In this document: positions 14,921 to 61,852 of the stretch, in pieces
Layout: the number at the start of each line of letters is the position of its first letter
How positions within the stretch are numbered: position 1 is the first letter of the stretch
The notes under the pieces: generated by a model
The model's input: only the letters and a program-made list of their open reading frames with translations
What the model was told of the DNA's origin: nothing
Database searches by the model: none
Virus record (IMG/VR): IMGVR_UViG_3300030441_000216
Direction: 5' to 3' (one strand)
Length of the DNA stretch: 64,000 bases
Origin: a virus
Program-made: the position numbers and the translations under genes

Positions 14921-15223
14921 ATGGTAAGAAAAATTAACAATAGATTGTATAAAGTTAATACATATGCTTCTGCACACATTATTGAAGTAGATGATAATTA
15001 TGATGAAGAAGTACAGAAACTAAGAAAAGAAATCCAACTTGACAGTATTGGATGCAAATTGAACTTACTTGCATATCTTGCCACATTAACGGTACAAGGA
15101 TATGCAATCTTAAGTGTAACTGTAACTGAGTTTAATTCAGATGGAAGCAAGCCTAGAGTTGCTTATGCAAGCAATAAAGATTTTAAAAAGATTGTTAAGT
15201 ATTATCTTGGGAAGAAAGCCTAA
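14921..15223 (+). CDS. hypothetical protein
   Basis: SD AAAGTGAGGAAATAAT-ATG. Confidence 0.5.
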   Translation: MVRKINNRLYKVNTYASAHIIEVDDNYDEEVQKLRKEIQLDSIGCKLNLLAYLATLTVQGYAILSVTVTEFNSDGSKPRVAYASNKDFKKIVKYYLGKKA

Positions 15224-15253
15224 GAATCAGCGATTTAGAAAGGAGAATTAAAA

Positions 15254-15442
15254 ATGAAACAGAATCATTATATTGTAACTTTTAACAATGGGAAAACTGT
15301 ATTTGCATCTGGGTTTAATACGGAGGAAGTAGAAATCCTTGCAAAAGCCGTAATGATAAAGAATGGATTATCTTATGACATTAAAAGTGTTAAGACAACA
15401 AGTAATTTATCTGATATGGCAGATACAGATTTTGTAGCATAG
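15254..15442 (+). CDS. hypothetical small protein
   Basis: SD AAAGGAGAATTAAAA-ATG. Confidence 0.5.
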   Translation: MKQNHYIVTFNNGKTVFASGFNTEEVEILAKAVMIKNGLSYDIKSVKTTSNLSDMADTDFVA

Positions 15443-15473
15443 GAAACGGAAATTTAAAAAGGGGGAAGATGAA

Positions 15474-15770
15474 ATGACAATCAAGGATGTAAAAGAAGAA
15501 TATAAAAATAAATATATAGAATTAGAAGTATATGAAGCAGTGAGTAATGGAAAATATTATCCTAGTAATTTTCATACGGATAATTGCAGATCATTAGGAG
15601 AAGATTCACCATATGGAAACTATACTGAGGATATGGAAGTAGGTCTATATGAGCTGATGGATGAAGAAGAATACAATAATACTATAATGGCAAATTGTGA
15701 TATTTATGCAGATTTTGAAGATTGGTATGGTGATAAATATGCAAAAGTATTATGTGTTATGATTAAGTAA
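15474..15770 (+). CDS. hypothetical acidic protein
   Basis: SD AAGGGGGAAGATGAA-ATG. Confidence 0.55.
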   Translation: MTIKDVKEEYKNKYIELEVYEAVSNGKYYPSNFHTDNCRSLGEDSPYGNYTEDMEVGLYELMDEEEYNNTIMANCDIYADFEDWYGDKYAKVLCVMIK

Positions 15771-15805
15771 ACAATTAGATACTATTAGAAATGGTGGTAA
15801 AATTT

Positions 15806-16000
15806 ATGGATAGGAAAGAATATTTATTAAGACAGGTACTAAAGTTATTTAAGCAACAAAAAGAAAGTCGTTATGTTTTAAATATTGAAGAGATGACTGT
15901 TATATACGATGGAACTGAATGTAATGGAAGTTGTCTTTGTGATGATATTATGGAAGAAGTAGGAATTGACAGCTTAGAAGATATTGAGGATGAGAAATAA
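15806..16000 (+). CDS. hypothetical small acidic protein
   Basis: The ORF-track start at 15791 is an ATG inside the SD (ATGGTGGTAAAATTT). The SD-proximal ATG at 15806 is taken instead. Confidence 0.5.
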   Translation: MDRKEYLLRQVLKLFKQQKESRYVLNIEEMTVIYDGTECNGSCLCDDIMEEVGIDSLEDIEDEK

Positions 16001-16037
16001 AGTGTGATATAATATGTAAGAAAGAAGGTTGATGAAT

Positions 16038-16553
16038 ATGGCAGGGTATAACGGATGGTCAATGAGTAATAACGCAGTTGCAGCTTATGAAGATGGTGAA
16101 AAACCATTAAGTAAGTGGACAAAGACAGATATTTTTGATACAATAGTTGATACAGAAATTGAATTAAAATGTTCAATTGAGAAGTTAAGAAAACTACCTG
16201 TGAAAGTTTTAAAAGAAGTTTGTTTGAGGTATTCTTCGTGGCATCATACAAGCAATCATTATAATCAGACAGATTTTTATTCTTTGGATATAAGCAGAAT
16301 AGAAAATTTAACAGATGAAAAAATTGATAGATTACTTGCAGATTACAAGGCAGAGAAAAAGAATGAAGAAAAGCCTACTGAAGAGAAATGGAGATGTGCT
16401 TTTTTAGAATGGTCTGGAACTAGAAAACATCCAGTTGCAAAAGAAATAGTTGAAGAGGGTATTGTAAAAGGCGATTGGTTCTATCGTAAAAATGGAACTA
16501 AAAAGAAAACAACAGCAAATGGGTTTGAATTTATTAAGAAATTGGAGGAATGA
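16038..16553 (+). CDS. hypothetical protein (171 aa)
   Basis: ATG 16038 lies 9 nt after AAGG; ORF-track 16029 is a TTG start. Confidence 0.6.
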   Translation: MAGYNGWSMSNNAVAAYEDGEKPLSKWTKTDIFDTIVDTEIELKCSIEKLRKLPVKVLKEVCLRYSSWHHTSNHYNQTDFYSLDISRIENLTDEKIDRLLADYKAEKKNEEKPTEEKWRCAFLEWSGTRKHPVAKEIVEEGIVKGDWFYRKNGTKKKTTANGFEFIKKLEE

Positions 16554-22981: not shown

Positions 22982-23161
22982 ATGATAACAACAGGAATTG
23001 TAAGACGCTTTGACGACTTAGGGAGAATACATATTCCAAAAGAAATTAGAAAAAAGGTGTTTGGAAAATATAATGTAGAAGGTACACCTATGGAAATTTT
23101 TTATGATAAGGATGGAAATATTATTATAAAACTATACAAGGAGAGCAATGTCAATGAGTAA
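22982..23161 (+). CDS. AbrB/MazE/SpoVT-family DNA-binding protein (59 aa, not in ORF track)
   Basis: N-terminus MITTGIVRRFDDLGRIHIPKEIRKK matches the swapped-hairpin AbrB/MazE signature (GIVRK.D.LGR..IP.E.R). ATG 22982 follows AAAGAAAGGTTGTGAT. Confidence 0.6.
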   Translation: MITTGIVRRFDDLGRIHIPKEIRKKVFGKYNVEGTPMEIFYDKDGNIIIKLYKESNVNE

Positions 23162-25205: not shown

Positions 25206-25487
25206 TTGAGTAGATATAAGAACGGAAATCCAAAACATGCAAGTCGATTCATATGTTTAAAATGTATGCAAGAAAATATGTTAGCAAGAGGAATTCAGCG
25301 TAAGAAACAACGTGAGAAATTTCATATTAAAGATCTTACTTGTATATTATGCGGTGGAATTGAAACTAAAAATATGGAAGTAAGGTATTGTGATGATTAT
25401 AAAGAGATTTATACAAAAGCATTAGAGAAAAGAGAGAATTATTATACAGGAGATTTTAGAAAGGTGGTTGATAATTATGTGTTATAA
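25206..25487 (+). CDS. zinc-ribbon protein (CLKC...CILCGG)
   Basis: TTG 25206 lies 7 nt after GAGGTGA. It overlaps the integrase start by 11 nt. Confidence 0.45.
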   Translation: MSRYKNGNPKHASRFICLKCMQENMLARGIQRKKQREKFHIKDLTCILCGGIETKNMEVRYCDDYKEIYTKALEKRENYYTGDFRKVVDNYVL

Positions 25488-26457
25488 AATAGAAGTCCAA
25501 AATAAAAATGCAGAGAAGCTTAACAGGAAGTTGGATGAGTTGAATCTTCCTATATATACGAGAAAATATTTCACTGTTAAAATTGAAAGCAAAGCAGGTG
25601 CATTAAATTATCTTGGAGTTATTGTAGATTTGCTCAATTGGTTTATTGAAGAGAAACTTATTAATAAAACAAATATTTCAGATATTGAGCCATCGGATTT
25701 TACAGATATCATGGCAGAAGATATTACATTATATTTAAAGACAAAAGAACAAAATGGAATGTCGCCAACTACATTAGAAACAAGGAAACATATTATAAGT
25801 AGCTTTTGGGATTATATGAGTAGAGTAAAGGGAACTGAAATTAAAGATGGATTCTTTAAAGATGTAACCTATAAGGGAATTCCATCTGGAAATAATTTAA
25901 CAAAAAAACTTCCAACAGAAAAGCAGCTTAATGATATGGAAGAGAAAATAATGTGGAAAAAGGATGAATGTGTAAGAAATAGGAATATTGCTATCTTTCG
26001 AGTGTTAAGAGGAACTGGAATAAGAGAATCTGAACTTGCAGGTTTAGATTTGTCTAATTTGCATTTAAAAGAAGAAATGCCATACATTACTATTCTTGGC
26101 AAAGGTGTGTACAGAGAACTGCAAAATAGAACAGTATATCTTAGTGGATCTGCTTTAAAAGCATTAAGAGAATGGTTAGAATACAGAAGTACATTGAATA
26201 ATGTTGTAGACAAAGAAGCTGTGTTTATAAATAAAAACGGTACACGTACAACAGAAAGAAATATTAAACAGATATTTGAAAATTATGGCAATGGCATCAC
26301 TCCACATATGATGCGACATTATTATGCCAGTATAATGAACAGAAATGGAAATCTTGCATTTGTACAGCAACAGCTTGGACATAGTAGTGTAAATACGACA
26401 GTTAATAATTATGCAAACGGAGCAGTGGGAATGAAAGATATATTAGACAATATGTGA
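25477..26457 (+). CDS. int: tyrosine site-specific recombinase / phage integrase
   Basis: C-terminal catalytic signature HMMRHYYASIM...LGHSSVNTTVNNYAN (R-H-R-Y family). ATG 25477 follows AAAGGTGGTTGATAATT. Confidence 0.9.
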   Translation: MCYKIEVQNKNAEKLNRKLDELNLPIYTRKYFTVKIESKAGALNYLGVIVDLLNWFIEEKLINKTNISDIEPSDFTDIMAEDITLYLKTKEQNGMSPTTLETRKHIISSFWDYMSRVKGTEIKDGFFKDVTYKGIPSGNNLTKKLPTEKQLNDMEEKIMWKKDECVRNRNIAIFRVLRGTGIRESELAGLDLSNLHLKEEMPYITILGKGVYRELQNRTVYLSGSALKALREWLEYRSTLNNVVDKEAVFINKNGTRTTERNIKQIFENYGNGITPHMMRHYYASIMNRNGNLAFVQQQLGHSSVNTTVNNYANGAVGMKDILDNM

Positions 26458-26463
26458 TATGTA

Positions 26464-26495
26464 AAGGACGATACAGATTAATTTGTGTCGTCCTT
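26464..26495. terminator. bidirectional hairpin between convergent int and repressor genes
   Basis: AAGGACGA-16 nt-TCGTCCTT, 8-bp perfect stem. It overlaps the repressor stop codon. Confidence 0.5.
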
Positions 26496-26748
26496 ATTCT
26501 TACTTGCTTTATTAATTTCAGTTGCATAGGTTAGTAATCGCTTCATTTGATAGTCATCAGTATCTAATATTTCGAGTGGCGAACAATTAAGTTCTTTACA
26601 AATTGCCTCTAAAATATCAAATTTAATTGAAGTTGATTCACCTTTGTAGATTTTGTCAATTGTTGGATATGTTACGCCTATTTTTTTAGCCAGTTCGTAA
26701 CGTGTCATATTTTTTTCTTTTAATTTGTTTTGAATAGATAATTTCATG
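26478..26748 (-). CDS. XRE-family helix-turn-helix transcriptional repressor (CI/Cro-like)
   Basis: MKLSIQNKLKEKNMTRYELAKKIGVTYPTIDKIYKGES matches the XRE HTH. Start ATG (- strand) at 26748 preceded by AGGAGGATTACATTC. The longer ORF-track form (26478..27095) has a spurious hydrophobic extension. Confidence 0.8.
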
Positions 26749-26823
26749 AATGTAATCCTCCTATATACATAGAGTACCATATATAAAAGAAAAAATAAAT
26801 ATAAAAAATAATTGTAATAATAC

Positions 26824-26852
26824 TTGACAATATATATAGTGAAGTATATAAT
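26824..26852 (+). promoter_or_regulatory. sigma70-type promoter (TTGACA-17-TATAAT) with embedded palindromic box
   Basis: TTGACA 26824-29, 17-nt spacer ATATATATAGTGAAGTA, TATAAT 26847-52. It sits 44 nt upstream of the mazF-like GTG start and is divergent from the repressor. Confidence 0.65.
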
Positions 26853-26895
26853 ACAAAATATCAAAGGAACAAACAGAGAAAGGAGGGCTAACATA

Positions 26896-27246
26896 GTGGA
26901 AATTAAACGTGGTGAAATATATTTCGCTGATATAACTAAATATGATTCTAAAGGTTCAGAACAGAGTGGTAGAAGACCAGTACTGATATTGCAGAATGAT
27001 ATTGGCAATAAGTTTAGCCCTACCACTATAATTGCCATCATAACAACAAAATCTAAAAGGGAATTGCCAACACATGTAGAAATACATAAGAACAAGCTTA
27101 ATGGGTTGAAATATGATTCTGTTGTGGCATTAGAGCAGATTTCGACAATTGATAAAGATAGGATTCAATTTAAAATTGGTGAATTATCTGCTGAAGATAA
27201 TTTAAAGGTTATGGAAGCAATGAAAATTAGTTTGGCTATGATATAA
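26896..27246 (+). CDS. mazF: MazF/PemK/EndoA-family endoribonuclease toxin
   Basis: VEIKRGEIYFADIT...GSEQSGRRPVLILQNDIGNKFSPTTIIAIITTK...LPTHVEI...LEQISTIDKDRI is close to Bacillus EndoA/NdoA. GTG 26896 follows AAAGGAGGGCTAACATA. No antitoxin gene lies immediately upstream. Confidence 0.85.
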   Translation: MEIKRGEIYFADITKYDSKGSEQSGRRPVLILQNDIGNKFSPTTIIAIITTKSKRELPTHVEIHKNKLNGLKYDSVVALEQISTIDKDRIQFKIGELSAEDNLKVMEAMKISLAMI

Positions 27247-27264
27247 GAGTGAGGAGAGAACATT

Positions 27265-27561
27265 ATGAAGACAGAAACTTATGATTACGCAAGTATAGAT
27301 GAAGCAATTGAAAGATTACAAAAGTTAAAAGCTGAAGGTAAAAATCCTAAAAATGTTGTTATATTAACAATGGATTTTGATAATAATACCTCTTCAAAGA
27401 AAATCACAACTCCTGATGATGGATGTTTATTAGTAAGAAAATCAAAAACAATTATTGTGAACGAAGATGCTTATATCCCTCATATGCAGCTATTCAATAC
27501 CGAACAGGATATAGAGAATATTATTAAAAGAGGAATTATGCATGACATTCTGTTAAGATAA
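27265..27561 (+). CDS. hypothetical protein downstream of the mazF-like gene (antitoxin candidate?)
   Basis: SD GAGTGAGGAGAGAACATT-ATG, 18 nt after the mazF stop. Confidence 0.55.
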   Translation: MKTETYDYASIDEAIERLQKLKAEGKNPKNVVILTMDFDNNTSSKKITTPDDGCLLVRKSKTIIVNEDAYIPHMQLFNTEQDIENIIKRGIMHDILLR

Positions 27562-27589
27562 TTTATTCGAATATTTGTTTGGTTTTATA

Positions 27590-27621
27590 TTGACACAAAC
27601 GTATGTTTGGAGTAATATAAT
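27590..27621 (+). promoter_or_regulatory. candidate sigma70 promoter
   Basis: TTGACA-17 nt-TAATAT/TATAAT in the 300-bp intergenic region. Confidence 0.4.
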
Positions 27622-27640: not shown

Positions 27641-27675
27641 GCTTGACTAGAAAGTTGGCAGCTGGCTAGTCAAGC
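27641..27675. repeat. 10-bp perfect inverted repeat GCTTGACTAG-15 nt-CTAGTCAAGC
   Basis: Read directly; the spacer contains CAGCTG. Confidence 0.5.
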
Positions 27676-27865
27676 AACATACAAAGTCTATTTCTTGGGG
27701 AAATAATCAGTATGCATTCAAATTATACATAGTAATAGTTATAAAAGTCAATTGCATATCAGCAAAATTTCCAATTTTTTATCACAATTTAATAGCATTT
27801 TTAATTTTTCTTTGGTATTTCCAAGGCTTATTAAAGTGCGCTAAAAATCAGAGAGGAGTGTTGTT

Positions 27866-28534
27866 TTGTTTATATTAACAGATGGAAAGAATTATGTTAT
27901 GGAAAATCCTATGAAGTCAGGTGAGTATATGATAACGACTTCGAGTTCTATGGCAAAGGAGTTTACTTACAAACAAGCGAGATCGTTAGTGCAAAACAGT
28001 AGAAAGAAATATTCATGGATTAAAAAATATAATCTTATTGATGTGGATACAGGACAGAAATCTGATAAATCTCTTTATTATAGAGGAAATGCAAATGTCT
28101 ATACAGGAGATGAAGGTAATTTCGATTATGCTTTATTAGATAAGATTGAATCAGAAGCCAATTCTATCTTAGGGTTAGCAGGTTGGGACGACAATCAACT
28201 TATTACATATAAAAATTTATTAAATACTGAACTATCAAAGTGCGATAGCGCAGAAAGTGATATTAATCATGCATTAGAGAAGTATAAGAAAGTACATAAT
28301 GGTAAGAAACCACAAGCTCATAAAGTAGCAAAGATAGGATATTTGCTTGATGATATTCGTGATAAACATAAACGAATAAAGCAGTGTATAAGATATGTTC
28401 AGGTTATGCAAGATGCGATAGTCAAAGGATATAACATTGAGAAGATAAAATTAGAACTTAGTAAAGTCACTAGCGATGATTACAAGGGAAGAACGGAATA
28501 TTGGAAAATGGCTAATGATATTTTGGAGGATTAA
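27866..28534 (+). CDS. hypothetical protein (222 aa), first gene of the DUF262 operon
   Basis: TTG 27866 lies 5 nt after AGAGAGGAGTG. Confidence 0.6.
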   Translation: MFILTDGKNYVMENPMKSGEYMITTSSSMAKEFTYKQARSLVQNSRKKYSWIKKYNLIDVDTGQKSDKSLYYRGNANVYTGDEGNFDYALLDKIESEANSILGLAGWDDNQLITYKNLLNTELSKCDSAESDINHALEKYKKVHNGKKPQAHKVAKIGYLLDDIRDKHKRIKQCIRYVQVMQDAIVKGYNIEKIKLELSKVTSDDYKGRTEYWKMANDILED

Positions 28535-28536
28535 TT

Positions 28537-28728
28537 ATGGTGATATGTAGAAACTGTTTAATTCCTATGGTAGAGACTATGAGTTTTCAACAAGGAGAAA
28601 GAAATCGACATGATAGATATTGTAAGTGTCCAAAATGTAAAAGAGAAACTAAACATATTAAAGTTATGAATTCTGAATTGTCTTTCGGGGAATATGTGAA
28701 TAAAGAATTGCGAAAGGCAGGTAGATGA
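28537..28728 (+). CDS. zinc-ribbon small protein (CRNC...CKCPKC)
   Basis: SD TTTGGAGGATTAATT-ATG, 2 nt after the upstream stop. Confidence 0.55.
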   Translation: MVICRNCLIPMVETMSFQQGERNRHDRYCKCPKCKRETKHIKVMNSELSFGEYVNKELRKAGR

Positions 28729-28729
28729 A

Positions 28730-30952
28730 ATGATTAATAAAGAGATGATGAGGATTATTAATAGTAATCCTGAGATGATGAAAATCATTAATGATTATTC
28801 AGATGATGAAAACAAAAAATTAAAAAAATTATGTCACAAGATTTGGCTTGGGAAGATTGATATGTATGAATATGATGATTTATATGATGTCGCTATACAA
28901 TGCTTAATGGAATCTGTGTATAGTTTTAATTCAGAGAAAGCAAATTTTGAAACATATTTAACAGGAAACATTAAAAGAAAATTTGATACATGGATGCGAG
29001 ATAATAGATTTCGACTAAAAAGAAATAATCTTGTCACGGATGAAAAAGGAAAAATAATTTATGACGAAAACGGCACTCCAACGATAATTAAAAATATCTC
29101 ATTAGATGCACATACGGAAGATGATAATAACTTAATAGAGAAATTAGATTCAGGAATAAATATAGAAGATGAATGTAAATTTAATTTTGATTCTGATGAA
29201 AAAGTAGAAAAGTTTCTCAATTCATTATCTAAAATACAAAAAAATATCTTGCTTATGCGGATGGAGGATTTTCCTTCTGAGAAAATCAAAGAAGAATTAG
29301 GTATTTCTAATGGAGAATATAACAGTGCAATGAAAGCAATAAAAATGAACAAAGGGCTTTCGATGTTCTCAATAAATAAAAATGATGGTGGTTATAATAT
29401 GGAGGTAAATATGGAAGATAGAATTATTGAAATTAGCGAATCTGAAAATTACAGAATGGATAAATATAGTATGTACTCGTTGTTACAAGATAAAAAAAAT
29501 GGGGATATGAATTGCAACTATATCTTGCAGCGTGAACCGTTTCAATGGAGTAAGGAAGAAGCAAATAGATATTTCTGTCGTATTCTTAGCAATCTTCCAA
29601 TTCCTGAAATTATACTTTGTGAACAGAAGAAAAAGGGATTAACTATATCACATTTGATTGATGGATTGCAGAGACTTTCATATGCAGAAGCTTTTAAGGA
29701 GAATCGAATTAAGATTGGTTCGGCAGGAGCGGAAAGACACTTAATTCAGTATAGAGATTATGTTTTAGATGATAATGGAAATCGTGTGCCTGATGAAGAA
29801 GGATTTCCTGAGTATGAAATGAAAGTTTTTGATGTTATTGGAAAATATTATAAAGATTTACCAGATGAGTTAAAGAAAAGATTTAATAATTTTAATATTA
29901 ATGTAACAAAGTTTTTTGATTGTACTGACGAGCAGATTGCCGATCATATTCGTGATTACAATAATCATGCAAGTATGAATAAAGAACAGGGTGGATTACT
30001 CAACGTATCAGCCGATATTGCTGGACATATTAAAAAGATTTCTCAAAAAAATTCATTTTTCAAAAACTGCGGTAAGTTTACAAATAATAATTCAATTAAA
30101 GGAAAACTTGAAAGAGTTGTTGTTGAATCAATTATGTTGTTATTCTTTCGTGAATCGTGGAGAGCGAGTTTAGATTCGATTTATAAATTCGTCAATGAAA
30201 ATACAACAGAACAGCAATTTTTAAAATTGAATTCACAGTTTAACAGATTGGAACTAGCATTAGGTGATAATAACAAAGATTTATCAAAGGAATTATTTAC
30301 ACCTACAACAATGCCAATGTGGATTTCAGTGTTTGATAAATTTACTACATATAATATAGAAGATAGTCGTTTCGTAGATTTCTTAAATGCATATAGCATA
30401 GAACTCAAAGACAAAGAAATCAATGGTATATCAATGGCTGACTTTAAGGATCAACAGACCAAGAAAAAGACAACTATTGTAGGTAAGATTGATTTACTTA
30501 TAAGGCTTATGAATGATTTTTTACATATTGATACAACTGAAACAGAGAATAATATAGAGTCTTCTGATAATAAGGTAACAAATGATAATGAATCTGAACA
30601 GAATACGGGTTGTGATGATGAAATATTATCATTTGTTAAAGAAAATGTTGCCGATGATATAGAGGATATTGATATAAAGGAATACCAGGATTTCGTGGAT
30701 GTGTATTTAGATATAAATAATCCATTATATATACAATGCAAGGCAGCATTAATGGCATTAACAGCATATGCTTACAGAACCGAAAAGGATGTTGAATTGG
30801 CGACCTGGTTGGAAAATTATCAGAAGAATGCTACTGATAAGAATTATAGTCCATCACAAGATGTTAATTATAAGTATATTAAGATGGATTTTGATAATTA
30901 CATAAACTTCTTAAATAATGTGAAGAAAGGAGGGATAATTAATGTTAATTAA
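28730..30952 (+). CDS. fusion protein: sigma-70-family region 2 / region 4-like N-terminal domain plus DUF262 (ParB/GmrS-like) domain
   Basis: DLYDVAIQCLMESVYSFNSEKANFETYLTGNIKRKFDTWMR resembles sigma region 2 (DL.QEG..GL..AV.KFD...G..FSTYA.WWIR). LSKIQKNILLMRMEDFPSEKIKEELGISNGEYNSAMKAIK resembles the region 4 HTH. YILQREPFQWSKEEANRYFCRILSNLPIPEIIL...ISHLIDGLQRL matches the DUF262 QR..W / DGQQR motifs. An in-frame internal GGAGGTAAAT-ATG lies at 29411. Confidence 0.8.
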   Translation: MINKEMMRIINSNPEMMKIINDYSDDENKKLKKLCHKIWLGKIDMYEYDDLYDVAIQCLMESVYSFNSEKANFETYLTGNIKRKFDTWMRDNRFRLKRNNLVTDEKGKIIYDENGTPTIIKNISLDAHTEDDNNLIEKLDSGINIEDECKFNFDSDEKVEKFLNSLSKIQKNILLMRMEDFPSEKIKEELGISNGEYNSAMKAIKMNKGLSMFSINKNDGGYNMEVNMEDRIIEISESENYRMDKYSMYSLLQDKKNGDMNCNYILQREPFQWSKEEANRYFCRILSNLPIPEIILCEQKKKGLTISHLIDGLQRLSYAEAFKENRIKIGSAGAERHLIQYRDYVLDDNGNRVPDEEGFPEYEMKVFDVIGKYYKDLPDELKKRFNNFNINVTKFFDCTDEQIADHIRDYNNHASMNKEQGGLLNVSADIAGHIKKISQKNSFFKNCGKFTNNNSIKGKLERVVVESIMLLFFRESWRASLDSIYKFVNENTTEQQFLKLNSQFNRLELALGDNNKDLSKELFTPTTMPMWISVFDKFTTYNIEDSRFVDFLNAYSIELKDKEINGISMADFKDQQTKKKTTIVGKIDLLIRLMNDFLHIDTTETENNIESSDNKVTNDNESEQNTGCDDEILSFVKENVADDIEDIDIKEYQDFVDVYLDINNPLYIQCKAALMALTAYAYRTEKDVELATWLENYQKNATDKNYSPSQDVNYKYIKMDFDNYINFLNNVKKGGIINVN

Positions 30953-32487: not shown

Positions 32488-32560
32488 TGGTCTGTGGTGA
32501 AGTGGTCAACACAACAGATTTTGATTCTGTCATTCGTGGGTTCAAGTCCCACCAGCCTAG
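32488..32560 (+). tRNA. tRNA-Gln(UUG)
   Basis: Hand-folded 73-nt cloverleaf: U8, A14, anticodon loop UUUUGAU (U33, anticodon UUG, A37), T-arm GTGGG-TTCAAGT-CCCAC, U1-A72. One acceptor mismatch (4-69) and one D-stem mismatch. The antisense ORF 32417..32638 shows the typical GWWDLNP artefact. Confidence 0.6.
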
Positions 32561-43875: not shown

Positions 43876-44712
43876 ATGATTAAAATTAATGGCGATATTG
43901 TAACAATCAATAAGTTCCCAGATGGAACACCAAGAGTAAATATTGATATAAACAACATTGAGGAAGACTCTTATGATGGCTCTCCTTGTATTTGGATTGA
44001 ATGGATTTATGAGAGTAACGATGAGATATTTTATCTGATGTTAGTAAAGAAACATCTTGAAAGATTTTTTACTAATGTGGATTATTATTTGTCTCTTCCA
44101 TATATTCCTAATGCACGAATGGATAGAGTAAAAAATGATGATGAAGTATTCACATTGAAGTATTTTTGCGATTTTATCAATTGGTTAGGATTTTCATCAG
44201 TTTATGTTTTAGATGCTCATAGCGATGTTTCTACTGCATTACTCAATAATTGTGTAAAAGAAAATCCAAAAGAGTATGTTGATAAAGCTATTTCAAAGAT
44301 TGGTATGAGAAATCTTGTACTTTATTTTCCAGATGCAGGTGCAGCTAAGAGATATTCAGATTTATTCCCTGAGTTACCGTATTGTTATGGTGAAAAGAAG
44401 AGAGATTGGAAGACTGGTAAAATCCTTGGATTAGACATTAGAACAAATGGTATTGATTTGAAGGATAAAGCTGTGTTAATGATTGATGATATTATCGCAT
44501 ATGGCGGTTCACTTTATTATAGTGCAGAAGAATTAAAGAAACATGGTGTAACTGAGATTTATGCGTATGCAACACATACAGAGAATTCAATTCTTGATAA
44601 AGAAAAAGGAACGTTGATCAAGTCTTTGGAGAATAATACAGTGAACAGATTATTTACGACAAACAGTTTATTTAATGGTAGTCATGAAAAAATTACAGTT
44701 ATGGAGGTTTAA
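43876..44712 (+). CDS. ribose-phosphate pyrophosphokinase (Prs)-family protein, candidate ADPR-pyrophosphate synthetase (Adps-like)
   Basis: Aligns by eye to Prs: KFPDGTPRVNI, LPYIPNARMDRV, VLDAHSD, FPDAGAAKRYSDL, VLMIDDIIAYGGSL...IYAYATH (PRPP-binding loop). Confidence 0.85.
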   Translation: MIKINGDIVTINKFPDGTPRVNIDINNIEEDSYDGSPCIWIEWIYESNDEIFYLMLVKKHLERFFTNVDYYLSLPYIPNARMDRVKNDDEVFTLKYFCDFINWLGFSSVYVLDAHSDVSTALLNNCVKENPKEYVDKAISKIGMRNLVLYFPDAGAAKRYSDLFPELPYCYGEKKRDWKTGKILGLDIRTNGIDLKDKAVLMIDDIIAYGGSLYYSAEELKKHGVTEIYAYATHTENSILDKEKGTLIKSLENNTVNRLFTTNSLFNGSHEKITVMEV

Positions 44713-44716
44713 AATT

Positions 44717-46177
44717 ATGGATAACACAATGGCTTTATTATTATCAGATACTTATAAACAGTGTCATGATCGCATGTACCCAAATGGTTTGACTAAATTG
44801 GTGTCGTATTGGGTGCCTAGAAAATCAATGTTAGAGAATCAGAATGAAATGGTTTTCTTTGGATTACAGGCATTTATCAAAGAATATTTAATGGGATATT
44901 TTCAGAAAAATTTCTTCGATTTATCGGAAGATGAGATGCTAACTCTTTATACAGATTCGATGGACGTACAGATTGGTAGAGACAACTATGATTTAGATAA
45001 AATTGTAGAGCTTCACAGATTAAGATATTTACCACTTGAGATTAGAGCATTACCAGAAGGTACACTTGTTCCTATGGGTGTTCCTTGTATTGAGATTACA
45101 AATACGGATGATAAATTTGCTTGGCTTGTTCAGTGGATCGAATGTATTCTTCAGGTAGAATTATGGAAGCCTTGTTGTCATGCAACTATCGGTCATATGT
45201 ATCGTGAGATTGCAGATTATTGGTATAACAAGACAACAGACGGGTTGCCTGGAAATATGGCTTGTGCAGATTTTGGCATGAGAGGAATGTCTTGTATGGA
45301 TGAAGCTACAAGATGTTCAGCATCATGGTTGCTTTCATTTAATAAGACATCTACAATTCCAGCAATTAATTATATTGATAGATATTACAATGCCGATTGT
45401 AAGAATAATGGTATTGGAATCGGTGCTGTCTCAACTGAGCATTCTGTAATGGGGGCTAATTTCTCAATTGATGGAGATGAGATTACGTTCGTTAAGAGAC
45501 TTTTAACAGAGTTATATCCAAATACATCATTTAGTATGGTTTCAGATACTTATGATTATTGGAATATGGTAAATAATATTCTTCCACAGTGTAAAGAAGA
45601 GATTATGAATCATAATGGAAAGCTCTTGGTTCGTCCTGATAGTGGTGATATTGTAGAGATTTCAGTTAAGACAGTTGAAAGGTTATGGGAGATTTTTGGT
45701 GGTTCTGTAAATGGTAAAGGTTATAAGGTATTAAATCCGCATATCGGTATTATTTATGGTGATGGCTGCACACTTTCTAATGTAGAAACTATTTGGAAAG
45801 AATTAGAAAAGCGTGGTTTCGCAGCTAATAATATTGCTTATGGTGTAGGAGCTTTTTGCTTCACTGCAATCGTTGAAAATGGCAAGATGATTGTTGTTAC
45901 AAGAGATACTTTTGGTATTGCAATGAAAGCTACATATGGAGTAATTGATGGTAAGAAGTTAATGATTTTCAAAGATCCTAAGACAGATACGAGTCACTTA
46001 AAGAAATCTCATAAAGGATGTTGTAGAGTATACGATGATAACGGTGAATTAAAGTGTCAAGATCAGTTACTTGAAATGAGTGATAACAGTTTACTTACTA
46101 CCGTATTTAAAGATGGAGAGTTAGTAAGAGAAGATACATTTGCGGATATCAGAAACAGAATGTACGGAGGTAAGTAA
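44717..46177 (+). CDS. nicotinamide phosphoribosyltransferase (NAMPT/NadV)-family protein, candidate Namat-like
   Basis: N-terminus LLLSDTYKQCHDRMYPNG matches the NAMPT start (LLATDSYKVTHYKQYPP). 486 aa; ATG 44717 lies 9 nt after GGAGG. Confidence 0.8.
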   Translation: MDNTMALLLSDTYKQCHDRMYPNGLTKLVSYWVPRKSMLENQNEMVFFGLQAFIKEYLMGYFQKNFFDLSEDEMLTLYTDSMDVQIGRDNYDLDKIVELHRLRYLPLEIRALPEGTLVPMGVPCIEITNTDDKFAWLVQWIECILQVELWKPCCHATIGHMYREIADYWYNKTTDGLPGNMACADFGMRGMSCMDEATRCSASWLLSFNKTSTIPAINYIDRYYNADCKNNGIGIGAVSTEHSVMGANFSIDGDEITFVKRLLTELYPNTSFSMVSDTYDYWNMVNNILPQCKEEIMNHNGKLLVRPDSGDIVEISVKTVERLWEIFGGSVNGKGYKVLNPHIGIIYGDGCTLSNVETIWKELEKRGFAANNIAYGVGAFCFTAIVENGKMIVVTRDTFGIAMKATYGVIDGKKLMIFKDPKTDTSHLKKSHKGCCRVYDDNGELKCQDQLLEMSDNSLLTTVFKDGELVREDTFADIRNRMYGGK

Positions 46178-46638
46178 TGATTAAAATTATTGATGGAGAC
46201 TTGCTCACTTCGAACACTGATATTATTGCGCACCAGGTTAATTGCAAAGGTGCTTTTAATTCTGGTGTTGCAAAAGCGATCCGTGATTATGATGCGCAAG
46301 TATATAAAGATTATCATAGTTTTTGTTCGATTAATACACCTGAACAATTATTGGGTTCTGTTAGATATTTTCAGTCTAATATTGACGCAAGAATATATGC
46401 AAATTTATTTGCACAAAAATCATATGGCTATGACGGAAAACAGTATACAGATATTAATTCTTTAAGAAAATGTTTTGAAAATTTGAGATCATATGCGGTT
46501 TTGGAAAATATGAGTATTGCAATGCCATATAAAATTGGCTGTGTTCGTGGCGGTGCAAATTGGGAGGAAGTACATCAAATGATAGAGGATATTTTTTATG
46601 ATTGCAATGTTGAATTATGGAGGCTTGACAAAGGATGA
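46177..46638 (+). CDS. macro-domain protein (second copy)
   Basis: IIDGDLLTSNTDIIAHQVNCKGAFNSGVAKAI matches GDIT...DAIVNAAN..L.GGGV..AI. Confidence 0.8.
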   Translation: MIKIIDGDLLTSNTDIIAHQVNCKGAFNSGVAKAIRDYDAQVYKDYHSFCSINTPEQLLGSVRYFQSNIDARIYANLFAQKSYGYDGKQYTDINSLRKCFENLRSYAVLENMSIAMPYKIGCVRGGANWEEVHQMIEDIFYDCNVELWRLDKG

Positions 46639-47048
46639 TAAATGAATTTAGAGGTAAATATTATTTTTTAAGCAACTTTTATTCTTCTCCTGTTACATAT
46701 GAAGGACTTACATATTTGAATAATGAAGCCGCTTTTCAATCAGCAAAAACTTTTTCAGATAGAGAATGTTTCACGAATTTAGATCCATCATCTGCAAAGA
46801 AACTTGGCAGAAGAGTTCAGCTTCGATCTGATTGGGAAGATGTGAAGTACAACGTTATGTACGAAATTGTAAAAGCGAAATTTACTCAAAATTTAAAGCT
46901 CAAAGCAAAGTTACTTGAGACTGATAATCAGCATCTCGAAGAAGGTAATACTTGGGGTGATAAAATTTGGGGCACAGTGAATGGTGTTGGAGAAAATAAT
47001 TTAGGAAAAATTCTTATGAGAGTTAGAGAGGAGATTAGACATGAGTAA
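46635..47048 (+). CDS. NADAR/YbiA-like (DUF1768) protein
   Basis: GKYYFLSNFYSSPVTYEGLTYLNNEAAFQSAK...WGDKIWG fits the NADAR signature (FLSNF...E..FQ..K). Confidence 0.75.
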   Translation: MINEFRGKYYFLSNFYSSPVTYEGLTYLNNEAAFQSAKTFSDRECFTNLDPSSAKKLGRRVQLRSDWEDVKYNVMYEIVKAKFTQNLKLKAKLLETDNQHLEEGNTWGDKIWGTVNGVGENNLGKILMRVREEIRHE

Positions 47049-47778
47049 TTTTGATGTAAAGAAAGCAACTAATGATTGCGTTCAGTGGATTAAGGATTTC
47101 TTTGAACAGAATGGTAAAGATTGTATGGCAGTAGTGGGTATCTCAGGCGGAAAGGATTCAAGTGTTGTGGCAGCATTATGTGTAGAAGCTCTTAGTAAGG
47201 ATAGAGTAATTGGAGTCCTTATGCCACAAGGAGAACAAAGTGATATCGAATATTCAAAAATGTTGGTTGACTTTTTAGACATCACTAGAATTACGTGCAA
47301 TATTGAGGGTGCTGTCAATGAAGTGTTAGAGAGTTTTGAAGGTGTAGTTTCACCGACACCTCAGACAACAACAAATCTTCCTGCTCGTATTCGTATGGCT
47401 ACATTATATGCTATTTCTCAGTCAGTAAATGGTCGTGTTGCTAATACGTGTAATCTTTCCGAAAATTGGGTAGGTTACGCCACAAAATATGGTGACGCTG
47501 CTGGTGATTTCAGTCCGTTATCTCAGCTTACAGTAACAGAGGTTAAAGCTATTGGTCGTGAGTTGGGACTTCCGTCAGAATTAGTTGATAAGACACCTAC
47601 CGATGGTCTTTGCGGAAAGACTGATGAAGATAACCTTGGATTTACTTATGCTGAATTAGATGCATATATCAGAGATGGAATTGAGCCAAACGAGGAAGTA
47701 AAAACTAAGATTGATTCAATGCATGAGAAAAATCTGTTTAAATTACAGCCAATGCCAAGTTTTGTGTACCAGGCGTAA
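47041..47778 (+). CDS. nadE: NH3-dependent NAD+ synthetase
   Basis: PP-loop VVGISGGKDSSV, RIRMATLYAIS, ENWVGYATKYGDAAGDFSPL, DKTPTDGL...DEDNLGFTYAELDAYI. Confidence 0.9.
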   Translation: MSNFDVKKATNDCVQWIKDFFEQNGKDCMAVVGISGGKDSSVVAALCVEALSKDRVIGVLMPQGEQSDIEYSKMLVDFLDITRITCNIEGAVNEVLESFEGVVSPTPQTTTNLPARIRMATLYAISQSVNGRVANTCNLSENWVGYATKYGDAAGDFSPLSQLTVTEVKAIGRELGLPSELVDKTPTDGLCGKTDEDNLGFTYAELDAYIRDGIEPNEEVKTKIDSMHEKNLFKLQPMPSFVYQA

Positions 47779-47785
47779 ACAAGAT

Positions 47786-47829
47786 ACTATATATAGTGCT
47801 TATAGAAAATATAGACACTATATATAGTG
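47786..47829. promoter_or_regulatory. paired palindromic boxes TACTATATATAGTG-18 nt-CACTATATATAGTG
   Basis: Lies between nadE and gene 47890; the second box is a perfect 14-bp palindrome. Confidence 0.55.
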
Positions 47830-60732: not shown

Positions 60733-60777
60733 AAAATCAAATACTATATATAGTGATTAGATAGATTAAAACTACTA
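60733..60777. promoter_or_regulatory. paired palindromic boxes TACTATATATAGTG-17 nt-TACTATATATAGTG
   Basis: Direct copies 31 bp apart, between gene 60291 and gene 60830. Confidence 0.55.
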
Positions 60778-60829
60778 TATATAGTGACAAAATAGACAAG
60801 AAATATCGGTTTCCTTGAGAGGTAAAATA

Positions 60830-61805: not shown

Positions 61806-61852
61806 TACCATATATAGTGAGCGTAAAGCACAACAAACACTATATATGGTAT
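61806..61852. promoter_or_regulatory. paired palindromic boxes TACCATATATAGTG-19 nt-CACTATATATGGTA
   Basis: The two boxes are exact reverse complements. They lie upstream of gene 61904. Confidence 0.55.

Follow-up and report, generated by a model that had tools for sequence, protein, structure and literature searches.

A candidate switch region in a human gut phage couples mazF and a putative antitoxin gene to a divergent XRE-family regulator

Gene content of the locus

The region surrounding a mazF toxin gene was analysed in a 64,000-nucleotide stretch of viral DNA from the IMG/VR record IMGVR_UViG_3300030441_000216, referred to here as the window. Nearly all genes of the window are carried on the + strand. 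At the locus, the gene for a tyrosine recombinase converges with the gene for a small XRE-family helix-turn-helix (HTH) protein, a candidate immunity repressor. Divergent from this regulator, across an intergenic stretch of 148 nt that holds a promoter, lie mazF and a gene for a 98-residue protein, here named p98 (Table 1). An initial annotation had described the same arrangement as a lysogeny-type module containing an orphan toxin. The features on which it drew were recovered at the positions it had given: the recombinase and XRE genes converge on a shared hairpin, a consensus promoter is directed away from the repressor gene, one box copy lies in the promoter spacer with two degenerate copies upstream, and the EndoA-like toxin gene is intact. 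The description of the toxin as an orphan did not survive comparison with related loci, in which p98 proved to be an obligate and strongly constrained partner of mazF.

The MazF toxin

The MazF protein matched PF02452 over residues 4–112 with a score of 106 bits (cut-off 23.1) and phrog_1936 with an E value of 1e-30. It is 56% identical to EndoA of Bacillus subtilis, and the nearest solved structures were 4ME7 and 4MDX (E 5e-31). Residues R27 and T50 align to Arg25 and Thr48 of EndoA, both essential for catalysis in this enzyme, MazF-bs (PMC10893535). Neither position varies among the 36 distinct variants of the phage protein. The gene was full length and undisrupted in 79 of 79 related loci, with a median ratio of nonsynonymous to synonymous substitution rates (dN/dS) of approximately 0.10 at a dS of approximately 0.65, and judged from these values MazF is intact and under selection. 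Carriage of a MazF by a phage is no novelty (PMC6507118), homologues being present in approximately 100 deposited phage records.

As had been proposed, there is no antitoxin gene between the promoter and mazF, the leader being too short to encode anything. The initial annotation had allowed for a conventional antitoxin overlapping the toxin in another frame; no alternative-frame open reading frame within mazF was found to be conserved among the relatives.

The partner gene p98

The p98 gene directly follows mazF in 79 of 79 related loci, with a gap of 4–21 nt. A profile search of 1.84 billion representatives gave approximately 60 clusters of relatives of 90–110 residues, and ten distant contexts at 23–61% identity were looked up. 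One of them was uninformative, its sequence being cut 15 nt before the gene; in all nine others (P0045, P0057, P0070, P0092, P0096, P0100, P0103, P0117 and P0121) a PemK gene was located directly upstream of the p98 relative. The spacing over the whole set ranged from a 13-nt overlap, seen in one distant context, to +21 nt. The sequence upstream of mazF could be read in eight of the nine distant contexts (L083 is cut), revealing a small divergent regulator gene of HTH, ribbon-helix-helix (RHH) or unannotated type in seven of these, the RHH gene being that of L086. The surroundings of the fixed mazF-p98 pair are mosaic, with shuffling of recombinase and regulator alleles, of the small upstream genes and of the genes that follow.

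The two proteins diverge in parallel, with identities of 58% against 61% in one comparison and 53% against 53% in another. The dN/dS of p98 was approximately 0.03, indicating tighter purifying selection than on mazF. The protein is mildly acidic with an isoelectric point of 5.6, while MazF is basic with one of 8.8, and its conserved polar residues are D68, H73, Q81, H93 and D94. An AlphaFold (AF2) model obtained from a deep alignment gave a predicted local distance difference test (pLDDT) score of 90 and a predicted template modelling (pTM) score of 0.82. The model is a globular alpha/beta protein with the element order beta-alpha-beta-beta-alpha-beta-beta-beta. Comparison of p98 with Pfam, PHROG, NCBIfam, PADLOC and the PDB gave no sequence match, the PDB profile search returning low-complexity artefacts alone, and no DNA-binding domain was found using Pfam, NCBIfam and fold searches.

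The linkage pattern is as expected for a cognate two-gene unit, and p98 is most plausibly a dedicated MazF inhibitor or antitoxin of a new family. The linkage, the co-divergence and the opposite charges of the two proteins suggest that p98 binds and neutralises MazF. Two antitoxin candidates had been put forward initially, and it is the downstream gene, in a reversed toxin-antitoxin (TA) order, that is favoured.

A promoter-like element lies inside mazF approximately 90 nt upstream of p98. Most close lineages retain it, but as its bases also form preferred codons of a conserved peptide, this retention is confounded. An internal promoter within the toxin gene is a device of reverse-order TA systems for over-producing the antitoxin.

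Exchange of the regulator gene together with the mazF promoter

The promoter upstream of mazF is the sole match with at most one mismatch in the window. Shuffled sequences contain on average 2.3 such matches, a number at which chance could account for the hexamers by themselves, and the promoter is credible because of its position and conservation rather than its hexamer match. The upstream regions of 71 loci, representing 28 distinct sequences, were compared. The leader AAATATCAAAGGAACAAACAGAGAAAGGAGGGCTAAC was common to 28 of the 28, while the block exchanged among the relatives comprises the regulator gene, the -35 hexamer, the spacer and the -10 hexamer, with homology returning approximately 7 nt past the -10.

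At the regulator position the relatives contain at least eight alleles encoding proteins of 66–149 residues, each accompanied by its own operator-like repeats. For each allele one or two repeat copies are located on the mazF promoter and further copies near the start of the regulator gene itself. In one allele a perfect inverted repeat of 10 bp, ATAATATATG-TTGA-CATATATTAT, surrounds the -35 hexamer; another has two direct copies and one inverted copy of the 17-nt repeat AATCTATATAAATATTG; others have three copies of TTAAGATATAT or four copies of TTAACAnTAT. Alleles retaining the box of the window also retain the recognition-helix sequence GVTYPTIDKIYKGES, and the other classes differ at this site. 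Because the regulator gene and the promoter with its operators are exchanged as one cassette, action of the divergent regulator on the mazF promoter is well supported by their co-variation, and the initial suggestion that the repressor controls toxin expression was strengthened. Diversification of regulators and operators in this manner is typical of phage immunity regions. We infer that the XRE protein would bind the boxes and that it is a putative immunity repressor of the phage.

The box of the window is a near-copy of the 14-bp palindrome CACTATATATAGTG, which occurs in pairs, 30–31 nt apart, at three other intergenic sites (47785..47829, 60742..60786 and 61806..61849). Matches to this palindrome with up to two mismatches numbered 37 against 22 expected. 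The paired distal palindromes may be further operators of the same regulator, giving a wider regulon. An exact search with the class-B palindrome found the P(mazF) site alone per contig. The contigs of the loci around 47.9 kb, whose upstream context is mosaic, are hardly ever those for which the regulator allele is known.

Table 1. Positions of the genes and sequence features at the mazF-p98 locus and of the genes considered with it (window numbering; aa, amino acids; RBS, ribosome-binding site)
Feature	Position	Strand	Details
AbrB/SpoVT-type gene, outside the module	22982..23161	+	59 aa; PF04014 E 1e-6; SpoVT N-domain E 9e-16
Tyrosine recombinase ('integrase')	25477..26457	+	326 aa; PF00589 E 8e-29; phrog_1 integrase E 1e-32
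Hairpin between convergent recombinase and XRE genes	26464..26495	.	14-bp stem, dG -19.3
XRE-family HTH regulator, candidate immunity repressor	26478..26747	-	89 aa; HTH_26 E 1e-17; HTH_3 E 3.5e-11
Degenerate box copy ATATACATAGAG	26763..26774	.	2 mismatches; adjoins regulator RBS/start
Degenerate box copy pairing as inverted copy	26776..26785	.	Adjoins regulator RBS/start
Consensus sigma-70-type promoter TTGACA-17-TATAAT	26824..26852	+	12/12 match
Box CAATATATATAGTG in and next to promoter spacer	26828..26841	.	Sequence
Box core ATATATATAGTG in promoter spacer	26830..26841	.	Sequence
Non-coding leader	26853..26895	+	RBS GGAGGG (26882..26887); under all promoter alleles
mazF, MazF/PemK endoribonuclease	26896..27246	+	116 aa; GTG start at 26896; PF02452 E 1e-30
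Promoter-like TTGATA-16-TAAAAT inside mazF	27149..27176	+	10/12 match, unconfirmed
p98, putative antitoxin of a new family	27265..27561	+	98 aa; starts 18 nt after mazF stop
Two LexA (Cheo-box)-like sites bracketing second promoter	27568..27581, 27596..27609	.	CGAAC-N4-GTTCG-like, 2 mismatches each
Second promoter TTGACA-17-TAATAT	27590..27618	+	28 nt after p98
Hairpin after second promoter, leftward terminator	27641..27675	.	T-run on minus strand
Leftward promoter TTGACT-18-TATAAT	27722..27751	-	11/12 match
Downstream genes fed by both promoters	27866..30952	+	222 aa, 63 aa and 740 aa; open reading frames
740-aa protein gene	28730..30952	+	Sigma-70 regions 2 and 4 plus GmrSD_N/DUF262 (NsnA-like); domain matches

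The second promoter and the genes downstream

Between p98 and the genes that follow, the sequence lacks a terminator on the + strand. The second promoter, which follows p98, is bracketed by two palindromes resembling LexA sites. At least one CGAAC-N4-GTTCG-like site with 0–2 mismatches was present in 39 of 39 distinct homologous sequences, the most distant lineages included, and in 37 of the 39 two such sites were arranged around the -35 hexamer at a start-to-start distance of exactly 28 nt. The arms of the sites are conserved and the central N4 spacer is free. This points to LexA/SOS control of the second promoter through these putative sites, and their conservation across lineages agrees with the lysogeny-type setting that had been assigned to the locus. 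As the palindromes resemble the LexA box of Bacillota, a host from this phylum is indicated. With these boxes on the second promoter, DNA damage could activate the downstream genes and bypass mazF.

A hairpin of 8–13 bp follows the second promoter in most lineages, with unrelated stem sequences, and in the window it terminates leftward transcription alone. The 15-nt loop of this hairpin was found in both orientations across genomes (the window compared with L073), as if the short segment separating the stem arms had been inverted. Further downstream is a leftward promoter whose hexamer columns are conserved in distant lineages. Together with the hairpin it is predicted to give an antisense RNA of approximately 80 nt opposite the leader of the LexA-box transcript.

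The last of the three downstream genes encodes a protein with sigma-like and DUF262 domains, and a sigma-like and/or GmrSD_N/DUF262 gene also occurs after mazF-p98 in the distant lineages L080, L082 and L086. In L009 and L010 the 740-aa gene is split into genes of 213 and 517 aa. In L008 a TnpB/Cas12f-like (OrfB_IS605) gene is inserted at 15044..16417, between the region of the 740-aa gene and a Band_7 gene; this insertion is missing from the window and from the remaining loci.

The recombinase gene and the shared hairpin

Recombinase alleles of 100, 94, 75, 71 and 40% identity are swapped among the relatives and combine freely with the regulator alleles. The hairpin between the two convergent genes overlaps the final codons of the XRE gene, its 3' arm encoding the C-terminal KDDTN of the regulator, and the stem GACGATAC...GTATCGTC is also found in the distant lineages L077-79, L084 and L038. 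Despite unrelated HTH parts and lengths of 66–149 residues, most regulator alleles end in KDDT(K/N/H) or a near variant (KDDAK, KEDDIK), and it is the 3' hairpin arm that codes for this tail; the L080 allele is without a tail of this type. Candidates for the source of this constraint are a terminator, a peptide tail or a recombination junction.

The element and its host

The recognisable products of the window are phage-type accessory functions, including DNA methyltransferases, nicotinamide phosphoribosyltransferase (NAMPT), NAD synthase, YopX and DUF8224/phrog_1735. The exact p98 protein was present in 758 blocks of a public assembly collection, and was located on IMG/VR viral contigs of approximately 150–160 kb and on metagenome contigs of 0.2–1 Mb. 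The phage carrying the module is extremely common in human gut metagenomes. One protein-cluster member carries the label of a Lachnospira eligens metagenome-assembled genome (MAG), and on the basis of this one label the host is probably a member of the Lachnospiraceae. A megablast search of the region against deposited phages gave no DNA-level match, and a tblastn search of p98 against the same collection gave zero matches.

Outside the module, a tRNA-Gln (anticodon TTG) at 32488..32560 was the sole Rfam/ARAGORN match within the window. The interval 44675..47778 contains the NAMPT gene (500 aa, phrog_448, E 1e-161) near that of NAD synthase (245 aa, PF02540, E 1e-53), a pair that is possibly an NAD-replenishing counter-defence set. 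Several DNA methyltransferase genes are located elsewhere in the window.

Interpretation of the locus

The balance of probability falls slightly on the side of a regulatory switch region, in a probably temperate and SOS-inducible phage, in which the XRE repressor governs a TA-like cassette of mazF and p98. The small repressor, transcribed leftward, would bind allele-specific repeats over the strong rightward promoter, and the first two genes of the rightward transcript would encode the MazF endoribonuclease and its inhibitor p98, giving a three-part cassette with a separate regulator, the toxin first and the antitoxin second. In a lysogen the repressor would keep mazF-p98 silent while host LexA kept the second promoter off. 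DNA damage would open the second promoter, leading to expression of the 222-aa, 63-aa and sigma-like/DUF262 genes without passing mazF. Once repression is lost, through induction or in a fresh infection, P(mazF) would fire and MazF and p98 would be made together as the earliest products, with p98 limiting or timing the activity of MazF. The toxin could then serve in takeover of host RNA, in tuning of the lysis-lysogeny decision or in exclusion of competitors. If lysogens keep the promoter repressed, a role in addiction is a poor fit.

The temperate setting is probable given the adjacent recombinase, the conserved LexA-like sites, the L. eligens MAG and contigs of up to 1 Mb, and this large phage is probably SOS-inducible. 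A more specific version of the model would place MazF and p98 in the 'cro' position as the RNA-level arm of a lysis-lysogeny switch, the balance of MazF and p98, in place of a Cro protein, deciding whether early lytic transcripts survive; this version is speculative and, as a specific claim, rather unlikely.

Several observations weigh against a repressor-controlled toxin-antitoxin switch in a temperate phage. The link between the regulator and the boxes is one of co-variation only, and the distant context L157 has no divergent regulator gene ahead of mazF-p98. Support for p98 as the inhibitor is indirect. A Foldseek search of its model against BFVD returned an uncharacterised homologue of its own family alone, with no match to a known antitoxin, and to our knowledge the fold is unlike that of any known antitoxin. 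Mimicry of the MazE helix by the p98 C-terminus (IIKRGIM compared with LMRRGYM of EndoAI) was considered and rejected, as hhalign gave an E value of 0.26 and the segment is a beta-strand in the model. The p98 family was not found in 185,579 species-representative genomes (GTDB). The top NCBIfam matches of the recombinase are XerC/XerS-like and under the cut-off, and its gene is located in the middle of long contigs, flanked on either side by phage-type genes, a position that would be unusual for a prophage integrase and makes it a putative integrase only. On the sense strand of the phage no 5–7-mer was strongly depleted, UACAU occurring 113 times against 151 for its complement. Self-protection by motif avoidance, as might accompany a host shut-off role, gained no support, UACAU and the other 5–7-mers not being avoided; the same result argues for a protein inhibitor of MazF.

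Alternative explanations

The same gene content could belong to an autonomous three-component TA system for addiction or abortive infection, in which the XRE protein would regulate the module only, as omega does in omega-epsilon-zeta and PaaR in paaR-paaA-parE, expression in carrier cells would be low, p98 would be a labile antitoxin that sets MazF free when lost, and the immunity repressor would lie elsewhere. Three-component TA systems are known from prophages (PMC7167474), and pemK/mazF families are found near integrase genes in temperate Staphylococcus phages (PMC6507118). The presence of an Xer-like recombinase beside a TA system also resembles the stability regions of plasmids. The relatives, however, carry at least eight regulator/operator alleles among otherwise near-identical phages, which is the signature of an immunity region, and we know of no TA autoregulator that has diversified in such a manner. 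The palindrome pairs at three other intergenic sites of the window suggest a regulon wider than the module, no other convincing regulator gene than that of the XRE protein was found on the minus strand of the 64 kb, and neither MazF nor p98 matched a PADLOC defence model. An autonomous system is unlikely on this evidence, though far from negligible.

A true orphan toxin, restrained by transcriptional repression only and with p98 as an unrelated adjacent early gene, would agree with the lack of an upstream antitoxin gene or a conserved overlapping reading frame, with the lack of similarity between p98 and any known antitoxin, and with the solo-looking MazF proteins of the large phages PMBT24 and Perkons, whose downstream genes are unrelated to p98. 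This is made improbable by the adjacency of p98 and PemK in every informative context sampled, from 100% to 23% identity and amid shuffled surroundings, by the short gaps or overlaps between the genes, and by the stronger constraint on p98 than on MazF.

Equally improbable is a phage RNA-processing pair, in which p98 would assist MazF as a cofactor, a specificity subunit or an activator, and host or early phage transcripts would be processed or degraded. The pair leads the early transcript under a very strong promoter, and p98 is well folded and globular, unlike the partly disordered typical antitoxins, and has conserved polar residues. An analogy is provided by RegB of phage T4, a RelE-like nuclease. 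Against this, enzymes of the MazF family are generally known to need no cofactor, the charge complementarity of the two proteins fits an inhibitor, and the searches with p98 detected no fold of an RNA-binding or enzymatic kind.

The AbrB/MazE-like gene that the initial annotation had offered as an unlinked antitoxin is very improbable in that role: it matches the MazE_antitoxin family PF04014 and phrog_4681 'antitoxin' (E 6e-12), but was rejected because it is absent from genomes with identical MazF (in most loci not seen within 6–10 kb of identical mazF copies; lacking within 10 kb upstream of identical copies in 10 of 10 ENA loci and most IMG/VR loci; missing from 10 of 10 20-kb loci and most 12-kb loci with identical or near-identical MazF), its DNA-binding domain fills residues 11–53 of 59 with no toxin-binding tail and is better fitted by the SpoVT/AbrB N-domain, and the partner of an EndoA-type MazF is an RHH antitoxin and not an AbrB-type one (4ME7). 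The gene is accessory and present in few relatives (L021, L064, L065, L069 and L071). Its product could act as a transcription factor, or the gene could serve in counter-defence as an antitoxin-like orphan directed against host systems.

Significance

The existence of the toxin is ordinary, given how well MazF toxins, TA modules of prophages and the swapping of partners are known. Three aspects were undescribed in the libraries and papers searched: a family of MazF partners that has no sequence or structural relative and is always downstream of the toxin, regulation by a swappable cassette of the immunity-repressor type with its boundary at the transcription start, and the position of mazF and p98 at the very head of the early genes in a phage common in the gut. 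p98 probably represents a new antitoxin family. If it is confirmed as an inhibitor it would provide a new antitoxin fold and a small, testable example of a genetic switch at which a phage employs a MazF of its own. If the 'cro'-position version is true, the locus would be a phage-encoded counterpart of the phi3T circuit of host MazF, AimX and YosL, with p98 as the founding member of a new class of MazF antitoxins. The conserved LexA boxes offer a direct handle on the induction of an uncultured phage.

Comparison with known systems

The closest characterised toxin is EndoA of the EndoA/EndoAI pair (MazEF-bs, 4ME7) from B. subtilis, with which the phage protein shares, in addition to the overall identity given above, the essential Arg and Thr and most motifs of the RNA groove (GSEQ, NDIGN, LPTHVEI and LEQIxTIDK). 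The organisation of the modules is different. The phage module has no upstream RHH antitoxin, its partner lies downstream and is unrelated in sequence and predicted fold, and regulation is assigned to a separate, divergently transcribed XRE protein. It also departs from the canonical mazEF/pemIK operon, which has an upstream, co-transcribed AbrB/RHH antitoxin that is autoregulatory; in the phage it is the separate XRE gene with which the operator repeats co-vary.

The regulatory side resembles the CI/Cro immunity regions in having a divergent repressor gene and early promoter, allele-specific operators, mosaic alleles and an adjacent recombinase. The differences are that the first rightward genes encode MazF and p98, neither of which has an HTH, instead of a Cro-like protein, and that the XRE repressor is very small and has no cleavage domain. 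Phage 186, through tum, and GIL01 are examples of LexA-controlled induction, and the likeness to these lies in the LexA-type boxes on the neighbouring promoter.

Reverse-order TA systems (higBA, mqsRA, hicAB, rnlAB) similarly have the toxin first and the antitoxin, here putative, second on one transcript (PMC7167474), and the additional promoter within the toxin gene may exist in the phage module as well. Their antitoxins bind DNA and autoregulate, whereas p98 has no detectable DNA-binding domain, and the toxin families differ. In the three-component systems, such as omega-epsilon-zeta and the paaR-paaA-parE of Escherichia coli O157 prophages, the regulator is separate from an antitoxin that does not bind DNA, and the systems are located on mobile elements or prophages (PMC7167474). 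The phage regulator differs in being on the opposite strand, divergent and outside the operon, and in being exchanged as an immunity-like cassette; the toxin of the phage module is MazF, and it precedes the antitoxin. Both reverse-order systems and three-component prophage systems thus have precedents (PMC7167474), and in TA networks partners are often exchanged and the order of the genes often varies (PMC10440598).

The wiring of MazF into lysis-lysogeny control, with phage inhibitors unrelated to full-length MazE, is known from the arbitrium systems of phi3T and SPbeta (AimX, YosL), and in phi3T the host MazF biases the outcome of that decision (PMC10769878). The MazF of those systems is host-encoded and the inhibitors mimic the MazE helix, whereas here MazF is encoded by the phage and p98 has no significant mimicry. 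The module as a whole would work like a reverse-order TA system combined with the separate-regulator logic of the three-component systems.

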